Positions 30,001 through 36,000 of a stretch of DNA of 64,000 nucleotides are shown in pieces (within the stretch, counting starts at the first letter, position 1; each line of letters begins with the position of its first letter). Source of the DNA: a virus; the IMG/VR virus record IMGVR_UViG_2841023034_000003; one strand, 5' to 3'. The position numbers were made by a program.

Positions 30001-33000
30001 TTGGCTGCTTCTTTCGTGGCGTCCAGTTGGATCTCCAGTCGAGAGTTCAGCCCGTCAGCGTTTGTTGTCGCAAAAGCATCCCAACGATGATAATGGGGAT
30101 CTGATATCACCCCGTATGGCAATGTCATGTGTCTTTTCCTTTGTGGTTATTTTGATACAGATGTTAAGCGTGTTTGAGAGGCGAGCAACCCAGACAACAC
30201 GGCACAGAAGAAAATCTACAGGCACACGATTATGACAAAATATATAAGTAAGTGAATACTTATTTTATGAAGCGGCATAGATTTCTAAATGTTACAAGCC
30301 ACTCTATAATCGCAGTCACTCATTGATGACAACTAAACGAAAAAGGAGAACGGACGGTGAAACGCGTAATTATAGGGACGATGGCCATTGCTCTGATCGG
30401 ATGCGTGCCAAAGCCGCCTCAAGATGAAAAGTCAGCTGGCGGGTACGTTGATATTTATTCCACTTCAAGCGTAGCTATTGCCCAAGACAGAGCCGACAAA
30501 TTGTGTGGAAGCCATGCCTATTATGTCTCCAACGACAATGATTTAACCAAAGTCATGGGTAAATACGCGCCTTCATTCCCAAAAATCCGTTTCAACTGTG
30601 ATCTTGAAATGGCCGCTTATCTCGGTAGCAAAGAGGCAAAGGAGATCAAGATGAAGCGCATAGAGGAAGCCTACAAGGAGATGTACAAGGCCCAATATGA
30701 GCTGAAAGAAGTGCGCCGTAAGAACGCTGATCCGAAGAAGCTGGAGTCCTACACAGAACGCGATCCTGACGGCACTATTCGCAGCTACAGCTTCTTGAAC
30801 GGCAAGTCGTGCGAATCCATCGTATACCCAGACGGCACTGGCAAAACAACTTGCGATTAATTCTTCAGAAGCACCTCATATGGGGTGCTTTTTACTTTGG
30901 ATCGCGAAACAGCATCTGCGTGCCTTTGGGTGACGTGTCGAAAAGGTGAAAACCTCTGCGTTTTAGCATGTCGGCCATTTGCGAGGATTTGACGTAGCAC
31001 TTCGCCATCATCGGCTGGCTCGGGTTTGAATCGATCATGTCGGACACCAGCATTGACCCATAGCCTTTCCCGCGCAGCTCTTTGACGATACTGACGGCAC
31101 GGAGTTCAAGTCGTGGCGCACCGGTTGGATCGAGTGCGGCACAGAACCAGATTAGCCCTGCTTTTTTGTCATCAGAACGGCGCAGCAGGATGTAGATATA
31201 ATGCCCGGAGTATTGGCCCTGCTCGTTCGTCTGGATGGCCAGCCTGGTCTGCTTCTCAAAGGTTTTACCACCCTTTGATGTGAGGATCTCTTCGTAGAAG
31301 TGACCCTTGCGTGCGCCGTCTTCGAACTCACCCATGATAAATGGCATGTCTGCCACAGTTGCTGCCCTTGAATAAAATTCACTCATGTATTAATCCCTAA
31401 AGCTCTCAGTGTCTTTCTAAGACACCATATTTTATGCCCCGGTAAAACCATGAGTTTACGTTTAAAACGTCTCAGAGGGCTTCTGACGCGCTACGCTGAT
31501 GTCGATTACCCCAGCTTTTGGGCGAGGGTCGACAAGATTCAACTCTTCAGCACTGTGATACTCCGTATCGAACTCCCGATCGACATGGCGAATGTAGATG
31601 GCCGTAAGAAGGCTGTCGTCGTTCAGGAAGTGTCCGTAGGATTTGCGGATCACTTCGCCAACCTTCTCGATCTTCTCTCCACCCATGCAGAGATGGTTAA
31701 ACCGGCTGTGTTTCCGCAGCATCTCATCCACCGGGCCGGAGTAGACCTTATCGACTCTCCCGAACCGGATGATATTTCCAGTATCAGCCTCAACCAGACA
31801 AACGAGCTTGCCAGGTTCGACCCGGTCTCGCCATGTTACACCAGAGCGGAGTGTGTTGAAGTAGGGTGCGTCTAATCCGATGATCGGTTTACGAAATGCC
31901 AGCAGTGGCACGTAACGTATGCAGCTGTTCAGGTGGAAGTGCGCCCCGGCGTCGTGGAGTTTGAGCCGGGTTTCGTTAATCGGGCACTTCGACGCAATGC
32001 CGCACAGGTCGCAGAGCAACTTCTGTTTGTTCAGGCTAGTGTTCGATTCAATGGTGTAGGAGCCATCTTCAAGACGGCGAACCCAGCGCGTGCGTTTGAG
32101 ATCCATAATTCTTATTCAAATAGTTTTGTCCGGGGCAACGATAACTGACAAGGCGCACCGATGTTTGCAAATGCCTGTTTTACTTATACCCATTATTCAC
32201 AGGACCGATCCAATAATTAGATCCCCAGAGAGATCCTACAGAAGATCAAAAGAGATCCCCGATCGTCTCCAGCCGTTGCGGTTACTGGCCTGAGAGGGGT
32301 TTACTATCCACTATGGGGAGGAAAGTAACCTCTGTAGAGAGCATAATAACCGCTATGAAGAGCAAAACAACCTCTCTGGAGAGTGGTCGGTATCCACTGT
32401 AGTGAGTAGGATACATTGTCTTAACTGGATAACTCAGTGCCTGTTTTTCTACGTCAGGTGGCTGATATTCATAGAGATGTTGGAAGTTTTGCGTTCAGGC
32501 GTGTTTGTTTCGACCACACATTATCCCCAGAAGGGGAGTGATGGCTGGTTTTGCAATTACCTGATTTTTATACACAGGCCCGATCCAGTAATTCAGATCC
32601 CAAAGAGAACCAAAGAGACCCACAAAGACCCAAAAAGATCCCCGCACCCCGCAAACCGTTGTGCCACATGGCCTTAGAGGTGATCGATATCCACTATAGA
32701 GAGAAGATCAGCCACTATGAAGAGCAAGCCAACCACTGTAGAGAGTAGAAAAACCACTATAGGCGGTAGGATAACCGCTGTGATGAGTGCTACTATCCAC
32801 TGTAATCAGCAAAGGCCACCAAAGCGGTCGAATAAAAAGAGACACTTGGAATGAGCGAAAACGGCAATAAAAACATAGCGATCGTTGAAGCATTCTCAGA
32901 AACAGACAAAAAGACCGGTGAAGTTGTTACGTTAGTTCCTAACACCAACAACACAGTTCAGCCTGTTGCTCTGATGCGTCTTGGTCTCTTCGTTCCGACG

Positions 33001-36000
33001 CTGAAATCGACCGCCAGGGGCAGAAAGGGGCAAATGGTCTCTATGGACGCCTCTGCTGAACTCAAACAGCTGTCTCTGGCCAAAGCCGAAGGGTACGAGG
33101 ACATAAGGATCTCCGGCGTTCGTCTGGATATGGATAACGACTTCAAAACGTGGGTAGGCATCATCCACGCGTTCGCCAAGCACAAGGTTGTTGGCGACAC
33201 CGTCACGTTACCGTTCGTCGAGTTCGTCAGGCTCTGTGGCATACCAACGGCCAGATCGTCCGCGAAGTTACGCAAGCGCCTGGACAGTTCTCTAACTCGT
33301 ATTGCCACAAACACTATCTCATTCCGCAGTAAAGGCTCTGATGAGTATTACGTGACGCACCTTGTGCAGACAGCAAAGTACAGCACAAAGAACGACACGG
33401 TCTCGCTGCAGGCTGATCCTAAGATTTTCGAACTCTACCAGTTCGACAAAAAGGTTCTTCTGCAACTCCGGGCAATTAACGAACTCTCCAGAAAAGAATC
33501 CGCGCAGGCGCTCTACACCTTCATCGAAAGTTTGCCACCTGACCCGGCACCAATCTCGCTGGCTCGCTTACGCGCCAGACTTAACTTAACCAGCCGCACC
33601 ATTACCCAGAACGCGACAGTCAGGAAGGCGATGGAGCAGCTGCGTGAGATCGGCTATCTCGATTACACCGAAGTGAAGCGCGGCAGCTCGGTCTACTTCA
33701 TCATCCACTATAGGCGGCCGAAATTACGCCCAGCACTGCCACCAACTAAAGCTGCGCCTGAAGAACCAGAAGACATCTTGCCTGGTGATGATCAGGAGGA
33801 CATTATCGATGTTGTTCCTGAAGAAAAAGAGGGTGAGATGGTCATGTTGAGCAAGGAAGAACTGGCGATTCTCGAAGAGCTACGCAAGGCAAAAGCTCGC
33901 AAATAACCCAACCACTGTAGAGAGTAGAAAGGCTCACTATCCACTGTAGTGAGCCTTTTGTTTATCTGAAATCCGCTATCCACTGTAGTGAGTAACAACA
34001 ACCGAAGAGTAACCACTGTAGGCAGTAGCGCTCAAATAACGAAATAAATGTTAGTGGTTACAAACCTAGATGAAACAAGGGCTGCGAGGTTAGTGGTCAC
34101 TGGGTATCTTGTTAAATCCTCTCTATAGTGGTTATCGTTGTTCCCGTCGTTATTGGCTATCCACTGTGGAGAGCAGAATCGGTTGGCCGGATTTACTAAC
34201 CACTGTAGTGAGTAGATATCCGCTGAAAACAGTGAAGGTTTACTCTCTATAGTGGATACCCGCTGGAGAGCGCATTCCATCACTCTCTATAGTGGTTGTT
34301 TGCTGCGAATGAACGCCTGTTTACTCCCTACAGTGGATAGCGACGTCGATAATCTCCACTTTACTCACTACAGTGGATACCGGATGTCACGGCAGGCGTT
34401 TTACTCACTACAGTGGTTATGGGCCGGATACGCACGCGGTGAGCTGGCTACTCACCGCAGTGGTTAGTGTTATCAGTGGATTTTCTTCAGCAGACCCCAG
34501 AGTGTCCCGGCCTTCGTCGTGAGCTTACCTGTTTCCGGATCGTACATGCGCCATTCGCGACGCTGGTGGACAATGACACCGTCCTCACGTTCCAGACGCT
34601 CCAGCACGCCGGTCTGCTTAAACCCTTTGGCACGCCAGTAGCCACTTGTTTTTTCGATTTCCAGACCTGCCAGTGTAACCGCCATCAACCAACCTCCTTG
34701 CAGTCATCGAAAAGGTAGCTGGCGTTCTTCGCGTGAACGCCGTAGACATCACCTGATTTGTTGTAAACGAACTTATCTTCACCCACGCCAGACAGTTTGC
34801 CGTTACGTTTGGTGAGATAGGGGGAAGACAGGACGCGATCATCGCGAACAACATAAAACTGTTCGCCGCTGTCCACAACCATCGCGCCGTAGCTGGCTTT
34901 GACGACATTGCGGATCACGTCGTTTTTCACTTCGGCCACTGACATCTCACACTCATAGACGTGCGTGTCCGCGTAGACAGGGAGGGAGAGCAGCGCCAGA
35001 GCCAGGGCTAGTTTCTTCATGCCACGACTCCTTTGATAACGCCGAATGCTGAGTCGAATACCAGCACTACGGCCAGCGCATTAACCATCGCGCCATTAAC
35101 AGGCGCCAGCGCTTTACGGATTGCTCCGGTGAAGATGCAATCGAGCACAAAAGCTATCGAGACAATAAGTAATAAAGTGTCTAATACAGTTTTCATGATA
35201 GGTAGATACTAACTTATATACTTTTTTTTGCTGTAAATATCACTCAAAAGTGCTGATGCCTAAGATACGCTCAAGATGAGCCGCGTCTTCATCGCTTACC
35301 GGCATCGTGTCGTCGACGTACCAGCAACTACCGTTGTGCCAACAAACACCGTCATCGTCGACATACACAGAATCTGCATCCATGCCAGTGTACTCAACGA
35401 GATTGCGCTCAATTGCCGCTTGAATTTCTTCATCGTTCAGCCCATCGCACTTGACCATGAATAGCGGGTAAACGTCATAGTCGGTGCTGGCTGAAATTCG
35501 AACCAAAATCTTCATGTGTCTTCTCCTTGTTGGTAAGTACTTATTTATATTAATGTGCGCCATGCGGCGCACAATCATTGTGTTCAGGCTGGTGGAAAGA
35601 ACTTCTCCAGCGTGCGGTCGACAGCTTTATCGATGTGCATCAGATGCCAGACGACCATATCTTTACTTCCCATACCGCGGGTGTAGATCACGTCGAACTT
35701 ACGCCAGGCGGCGTGAAACCAGTGCGGTGTATCATCAACCGGCAGATTCTCTCCAGCCTCCTTGAAGTACTTGAGCAGCATGGCCTGTTCAGCGGTGGGC
35801 GTCGGGCCAATCTCTTCCGCGTACATTCTGATGAAACGCTGCCAGTCGGCTTCATCTTCTGAAGGTTCCGGTGCGTTCATCTCTGCAATCGCCTCACGCA
35901 GCTGCGTCGCCCATTCTGGCTCCGGGAAGCCCTGGGCAATTTCGGTATCCACTACATCCAGCGCAGCGTTGGCCGCGTCATACAGTTTCTTCACGCTTTT

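Follow-up and report, generated by a model that had tools for sequence, protein, structure and literature searches.

A RepFIB/P1-type iteron replicon with two tandem origin-like modules in a phage-plasmid of the SSU5/pHCM2 type

The viral record IMGVR_UViG_2841023034_000003 provides a stretch of 64,000 nucleotides (64 kb, hereafter the window) in which repA, the gene for a replication initiator, is flanked on both sides by short repeats (iterons) and surrounded by phage genes (Table 1). The iterons are approximately 19–21 bp long, share the core AACCACTGTAGAGAG, and have the window consensus CTAACCACTGTAGAGAGTAGA. An IUPAC pattern taken from the motif of the initial annotation matches 22 times in the window, and all matches fall in 32306-34465, while 100 dinucleotide-preserving shuffles yield a mean of 0.57 and a maximum of 4 matches by chance. 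A position-weight matrix built from the pattern copies and scanned over both strands of the whole window recovers 24 strong iterons. All of them lie within 32304-34467 and within 550 bp of repA on either side, where less than one is expected by chance. They are arranged in three clusters, 5 + 6 copies upstream and 13 downstream of repA, and the two upstream arrays are 276 bp apart. The same scan gives weak copies at 33701, inside repA, and at 34216. Taken together, the strong sites, the weak copies, and the half-sites listed in Table 1 account for the “about 25 copies” of the initial annotation. Its description of the orientations is also retained: the upstream set is entirely direct, though divided into two arrays that correspond to two tandem origin-like modules, and the downstream set includes inverted copies (7 of its 13 strong sites are on the minus strand).

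The weak iteron-like site inside repA (33701-33721) scores 11, as compared to 19-32 for the real sites. It overlaps the codons of the invariant IHYRRP motif, a coincidence that is also seen in the Cronobacter homolog, and could either be due to constraint on the coding sequence or represent a genuine binding site within the gene.

Table 1. Features of the replicon and of the resistance module in the window. M1 and M2 are the distal and the proximal upstream module, respectively.
Feature	Position	Strand	Remarks
M1, two adjacent DnaA-box-like 9-mers, TTATACCCA and TTATTCACA	32184..32201	+	TTWTNCACA regex match at 32193; alignment with P1 oriR
M1, heptamer repeats, six GATC (Dam) sites	32206..32266	+	alignment with the five annotated Dam sites of P1
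M1, iteron array, five direct	32304..32410	+	spacing 21, 21, 21, 23 bp
Inter-module spacer	32411..32545		neutral evolution versus Cyrano
M2, single DnaA-box-like 9-mer, TTATACACA	32568..32576	+	TTATCCACA in Cyrano and p15ODDR
M2, heptamer repeats, ~10-bp periodicity	32581..32642	+	six heptamers, three with GATC
M2, iteron array, six direct	32687..32813	+	spacing 21, 21, 21, 21, 22 bp
repA, 351 aa	32851..33906	+	Rep_3-family (WH1-WH2) iteron-binding initiator, RepFIB subfamily
Downstream iteron array, incA-like	33908..34467		13 strong iterons, the first starting 2 nt after the repA stop codon
Downstream iterons, plus strand (n = 6)	33908, 33937, 33976, 34009, 34157, 34196	+	
Downstream iterons, minus strand (n = 7)	34115, 34239, 34279, 34320, 34360, 34400, 34447	-	
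Conserved iteron half-sites (n = 2)	34050-34061, 34089-34100		
Intrinsic terminator of repA	33927..33966	+	14-bp stem, T-rich tail
IS1380/ISEcp1-like transposase	56397-57659		
blaCTX-M	57994-58869		NCBIfam 628 bits, cut-off 570
blaTEM	59651-60511		NCBIfam 668 bits, cut-off 625
Serine recombinase	60694-61287		

RepA has an isoelectric point (pI) of 9.1, in line with the 351-aa basic protein of the initial annotation, and is composed of a strongly basic core (pI 9.8) and an acidic C-terminal tail (pI 4.3). Within the Rep_3 families (Pfam PF01051/PF21205), Rep3_N matches RepA residues 115-225 with 43.0 bits (gathering cut-off 22.4, E 7.6e-11), and PF21205 is present in the precomputed domain assignments of some RepA homologs. 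BLASTP aligns RepA with the Rep protein of F RepFIB at 64% identity over 300 aa (E 9e-144) and with P1 RepA at 49% identity over 267 aa, which is nearly the whole P1 protein (E 4e-92, also found by tblastn). In the AlphaFold (AF2) model, which was built from 29 homologs, the core residues ~60-290 reach a pLDDT of 70-90. When this model is compared to the PDB with Foldseek, all 14 matches with E <= 1e-3 are iteron initiators, namely V. cholerae RctB domains 2-3, F RepE, and R6K pi (E 1e-7 to 1e-4, probability 1.00, target-normalized TM-score 0.37-0.50). RepA is a true homolog of P1 RepA and F RepFIB Rep and belongs to the WH1-WH2 Rep_3 initiators. The Rep-family fold on which the initial annotation had staked its reading is thus present, with Rep3_N above its gathering score and only iteron initiators among the significant fold matches.

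The C-terminal extension of RepA (residues 294-351, window 33727-33903) takes the form of an acidic, predicted-disordered linker of pI 4.3 that is followed by an amphipathic helix (residues 335-350). The helix is modeled at a pLDDT of ~70-77, and its consensus LxxEELxLLEKIRKxK is conserved in the 29 homologs. P1 RepA does not have this 58-residue tail.

The 2.4-kb replicon region is found at 100% nucleotide identity in p3_SCLZS62, a plasmid of Raoultella planticola, and at 99.6% in pHCM2 of S. Typhi CT18, 96.9% in Salmonella phage SSU5, 95.6% in Y. pestis pMT, and 83% in Escherichia phage Cyrano. It is matched by 338 plasmid records, almost all of which are non-mobilizable. The p3_SCLZS62, pHCM2, and pMT plasmids are classified as IncFIB by MOB-suite, a typing that refers to the matching plasmids, and p3_SCLZS62 has been typed as IncFIB(pHCM2) by PlasmidFinder (PMC8907287, Table 2). 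These plasmids are stably inherited and carry no other typed replicon. Over positions 1-55843, the window aligns collinearly with p3_SCLZS62 at 99-100% identity, and the genes of this plasmid include those for terminase, portal, capsid, tape-measure, and tail proteins. The genes around the replicon are phage genes of the SSU5 supergroup that are syntenic with SSU5, in line with the earlier placement inside a phage gene cluster; the SSU5 supergroup is a recognized group of phage-plasmids (PMC7969092).

With high confidence, the region ~32160-34470 can be assigned as the replicon that maintains the plasmid prophage of an SSU5/pHCM2-type phage-plasmid, i.e., a theta replicon under iteron control that belongs to the RepFIB/P1 family and to type IncFIB(pHCM2). 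The replicon is already known and catalogued in the SSU5/pHCM2/pMT1 family of phage-plasmids. The plasmid lifestyle that the initial annotation had deduced from RepA and its two-sided iterons is supported by the Rep homology, the P1-like anatomy, and the phage-plasmid surroundings. Its comparison with the incC/incA architecture of P1 stands as far as the anatomy is concerned, which matches P1 feature by feature, but the closest family is RepFIB (subtype IncFIB(pHCM2)) and not P1. The left boundary of 32290 has to be corrected to a replicon start at ~32160, as it cuts off the distal leader of DnaA boxes and GATC heptamers (32184-32266).

It can be asked whether the RepA-iteron unit serves plasmid maintenance at all or is the lytic (vegetative) origin of the phage. 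The unit sits in a phage DNA-metabolism block with genes for an SbcCD-like nuclease, nrdAB, thymidylate synthase, a RecA-like protein, and Pol III alpha, as might be expected of a lytic origin. This explanation is nevertheless very improbable: the homologs of RepA in P1 and F RepFIB are initiators of plasmid maintenance, the same replicon is found beside parAB on non-phage plasmids, and it is the only typed replicon of plasmids that are stably inherited. Furthermore, the large downstream negative-control array fits low-copy maintenance rather than run-away lytic replication, for which the element's own DnaB-like helicase, primase, and ligase, encoded elsewhere, could serve.

Several results weigh against the assignment as a maintenance replicon. 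Rep3_C matches RepA residues 236-282 with 21.0 bits (E 3.9e-4) and thereby stays marginally below its cut-off of 21.1, although the two-domain fold match of the model would support the Rep3_C assignment. The query-normalized TM-scores of the Foldseek matches are modest (0.26-0.42), which is attributed to the disordered termini and a different orientation of the domains. Searches of PDB sequences with phmmer and a profile hmmsearch returned no match to RepA, so that the link to RepE, pi, and RctB is drawn from the fold comparison, and an NCBIfam search with RepA likewise gave no match. A simple promoter scan revealed no convincing sigma-70 match on the plus strand for repA; the position of the repA promoter is consequently inferred, and autoregulation is proposed from homology. 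Finally, the window contains no partition genes: the search for parAB that had been suggested along with the initial annotation, carried out by tblastn with P1 ParA and ParB, found nothing in the 64 kb.

Judging from the alignments, the upstream iterons belong to two oriR-like modules in tandem, the distal M1 with five and the proximal M2 with six iterons. Both align at the nucleotide level with the annotated oriR of P1, including the DnaA site, the Dam sites, and the leader, and in both the iteron cluster is preceded by heptamers with a 10-12-bp periodicity. In M1, the DnaA-box-like 9-mers align onto the annotated DnaA site of P1 (the tandem DnaA boxes of P1), and the equivalent position in Cyrano reads TTATCCACT. 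The six M1 heptamers (CGATCCA, AGATCCC, AGATCCT, AGATCAA, AGATCCC, and CGATCGT) constitute the densest GATC cluster of the window and the sole place with at least 4 GATC in 66 bp. All six GATC sites are kept in six relatives, and the heptamer region is a candidate for DNA unwinding and SeqA sequestration. In M2, the three heptamers without GATC (AGAACCA, AGACCCA, and AGACCCA) are nearly invariant in the relatives. The M2 array ends 38 bp before the repA ATG and, by analogy, is presumed to be the operator of the repA promoter. A 91-aa open reading frame (32402-32677) and other small frames over the iteron arrays were dismissed as genes, as the spacer evolves neutrally and no coding sequence is annotated there in SSU5, pHCM2, pMT, or Cyrano.

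A phage N6-adenine methyltransferase is annotated in the identical plasmid at a position corresponding to window 14148-14741 on the minus strand. A putative adenine methylase encoded by an element whose origin is dense in GATC sites is a suggestive combination.

SSU5, pHCM2, pMT, two E. coli plasmids, and Cyrano all retain the 5 + 6 layout together with the DnaA-like boxes and the GATC positions. When the window is compared to Cyrano, the four-fold sites of repA, which serve as the neutral yardstick, are 63.0% identical, the third codon positions of repA 66%, and the inter-module spacer 63.7%. The leaders reach 80% (M1) and 85.8% (M2) and the iterons 86% (M1) and 89.8% (M2). As the identity of both modules is well above that of neutral sites and the spacer is at the neutral level, M1 and M2, but not the spacer, are under purifying selection. 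This bears on the question of whether one of the two modules is a non-functional, decaying duplicate, which would leave a replicon with a single functional origin of the P1/RepFIB kind. P1 and F RepFIB do work with one module, and in M2 only three of the six heptamers still carry GATC and one DnaA box is gone. Such decay is unlikely, however, given the conservation of both modules far above the neutral spacer, the near invariance of the very heptamers that lack GATC, and the persistence of the doubling in Cronobacter and Pantoea plasmids, whose RepA is 70-79% identical, and in weaker form in Xenorhabdus (63%).

The Cronobacter (RepA 79% identical) and Pantoea (70%) copies of the doubled layout are located on non-phage plasmids, where repA adjoins P1-type parA/parB, and the weaker form in Xenorhabdus belongs to an SSU5-like element. 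Because the doubling is shared by these elements and other alleles of the SSU5 supergroup carry a single array, it is an old trait of this RepFIB subclade and not of the phage backbone. It is possible, though rather doubtful, that the tandem doubling represents a functional innovation of this subclade, either as a split between origin and operator or as two alternative origins. In the split version, a Dam/SeqA-sensitive distal origin that fires may be combined with a GATC-depleted proximal module that acts as operator or pairing partner. In P1, the origin and operator functions overlap in a single iteron array. No description of a doubled origin module was found in the searchable literature, which did not cover the original 1998 pMT1 papers, and literature searches on the iterons of pHCM2 or pMT1 returned nothing specific.

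The downstream array follows directly on repA and takes on a defined order of four plus-strand copies, a mixed stretch, and six minus-strand copies that are 40-47 bp apart. Its second iteron is embedded in the stem-loop of the repA terminator, which folds as RNA with -23.7 kcal/mol (z -5.5; 0 of 200 shuffles fold as well) and is conserved in relatives. By analogy with incA, the array would be a copy-number control and incompatibility element. In the RepFIB replicons of F, P307, and pO157, the downstream block has been experimentally shown to be an incompatibility and control element; in the FIB replicon of pO157, the plasmid is displaced by the downstream iteron block on its own but not by the upstream block, which fits control by handcuffing (PMC11983097).

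Repeats that bind proteins in mixed orientation occur in partition centromeres as well, and a parS was not found in the window. That the downstream array is such a centromere, or a second origin, is nonetheless highly implausible. Its repeats have the same consensus as the origin iterons and should therefore bind the same protein, and its position and orientation plan are exactly those of P1 incA and of the E-K iterons of RepFIB, the block that acts in control and incompatibility (PMC11983097). Type I centromeres usually adjoin parAB, which is located elsewhere in this case, and neither a DnaA box nor a GATC cluster accompanies the array. Copy control by antisense RNA, as an alternative to control by iterons, was unsupported, with no match in an Rfam scan of 31900-34700 at E <= 1. 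A 2026 preprint on phage-plasmid heteroresistance deals with another family (IncFII-like, with CopA/CopT RNA control) and was set aside as not relevant.

The minus-strand half of the array (34239-34467) gains and loses whole units of ~40 bp among close relatives. Six minus-strand copies are present in pHCM2, Cyrano, and p15ODDR, seven in the window and pMT, eight in SSU5, and nine in pP59A-2. This variation suggests slippage or recombination that could tune the copy number.

From the homology, site architecture, and constraint found here, together with what is known from P1, F RepFIB, and the general iteron-plasmid literature, the following mechanism can be proposed. RepA monomers would bind to the direct iterons, which are phased two helical turns apart, and together with the host DnaA would open the adjacent heptamer region. 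Subsequently, host DnaB and the replisome would be loaded. Through the GATC sites, initiation would respond to Dam methylation and to sequestration by SeqA, and re-initiation would thereby be gated. RepA bound to the promoter-proximal array would repress its own transcription. The downstream array would titrate RepA and pair with the origin iterons in cis and trans (handcuffing), leading to a low copy number; through this titration and handcuffing it would also be the main incompatibility determinant. M1, with its six intact GATC heptamers and paired DnaA boxes, is more likely the firing origin, and M2, which has partly lost its GATC sites and abuts repA, is more likely an operator or auxiliary control site. 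This division of labor between an M1 origin and an M2 operator is put forward as a hypothesis.

Partition functions of the element may be encoded beyond the window. In a plasmid with identical backbone (NZ_CP082171, 56262-57289), a 221-aa ParA-like ATPase (AAA_31, MipZ, and CbiA domains) is encoded together with a 118-aa partner without Pfam match, and the ATPase lies ~13 kb past the last backbone sequence present in the window. The two proteins are probably a type Ib partition cassette of the phage-plasmid. Two proteins with a ParB_N domain that are encoded beside the terminase are more likely to have a phage function than to act in partition. A candidate “parAB” pair at 56397-58869 was rejected, as it is actually an IS1380-family transposase and a CTX-M beta-lactamase. 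Both belong to the resistance module, which occupies 55844-64000 after the end of the backbone at 55843 (Table 1). From 55828 on, the sequence is 99.9% identical to the CTX-M-3/TEM-1 Tn3-family context of many plasmids.

The replicon is what allows a temperate phage to persist as a low-copy plasmid. This persistence turns SSU5/pHCM2-type elements into vehicles of resistance genes, such as the blaCTX-M and blaTEM carried by the copy in the window, and also makes them detectable by replicon typing. For plasmid curing with pCURE-type designs, it is of direct use to know the iteron block that would set copy number and incompatibility, and the doubled origin module lends itself, as a natural system, to studying how the origin-firing role of iterons can be separated from the autoregulatory one. 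Current understanding is unchanged by this, and the finding is mainly the correct identification of a known element.

In P1, the annotated replicon begins with a DnaA site and five Dam sites in heptamers, continues with five 19-bp iterons (incC) among which the repA promoter lies, and ends with repA and nine incA iterons. A direct scan of P1 incA shows that it starts at the repA stop codon with three plus-strand copies followed by six minus-strand copies. The window follows the same plan with 13 instead of 9 sites. The DnaA boxes and GATC heptamers of the origin leader are similar at the nucleotide level, five direct iterons are set at a spacing of 21-22 bp, and P1 is a plasmid prophage like the element in the window. 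P1 differs in that it has one origin module, whereas the organization is present twice in tandem in the window. Its iteron, GATGTGTGCTGGAGGGAAA, is unrelated to the window consensus and sets the IncY specificity; the window replicon works like that of P1, yet it is not an IncY member. In addition, parAB-parS is located immediately downstream of the P1 replicon, whereas the window codes for neither a ParA nor a ParB of the P1 type.

F RepFIB resembles the window in that rep lies between origin iterons on its upstream side and control iterons on its downstream side and that a DnaA box and a cluster of five GATC sites precede the upstream array. In contrast to the two modules and 13 downstream sites of the window, however, it has a single upstream module with 5 iterons. 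The F iteron is ATAAGCTGTAGTCAGT-like and that of the window AACCACTGTAGAGAGT-like, and this difference implies a separate specificity.

Within the SSU5 supergroup, elements of the PhiR41_1, pJN2-26, and pKpn/pSLy3 type share the flanking phage genes and carry a P1/RepFIB-type RepA (~50% identical) with flanking iterons and GATC heptamers. The allele of the PhiR41_1/pJN2-26 type differs by a single upstream array of 5 iterons and by its iteron, TATGCTGTCAGCGGT. The backbone slot between a gene for a 214-aa protein (ASCH-like in the Cyrano annotation) and a cra-like gene (window 31462-34688) is occupied by different RepFIB/P1-type alleles across the supergroup, which indicates exchange of the replicon as a cassette. 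In Klebsiella phage pJN2-26 (MZ779062), the annotated attR and attL (1746-1765 and 3016-3035 of the examined stretch) overlap RepA iterons of the sequence given above (1745-1762 and 3015-3032), and these att sites are probably mis-annotated iterons.

The same replicon as in the window is found in pHCM2, SSU5, pMT1/pFra, and many enterobacterial phage-plasmids, with identical 5 + 6 upstream iterons and gene order. The replicons of pHCM2, SSU5, and pMT differ from that of the window solely in point substitutions and in the number of ~40-bp downstream units. Unlike in these relatives, the copy in the window is located on an element with an acquired ISEcp1-blaCTX-M/TEM module.

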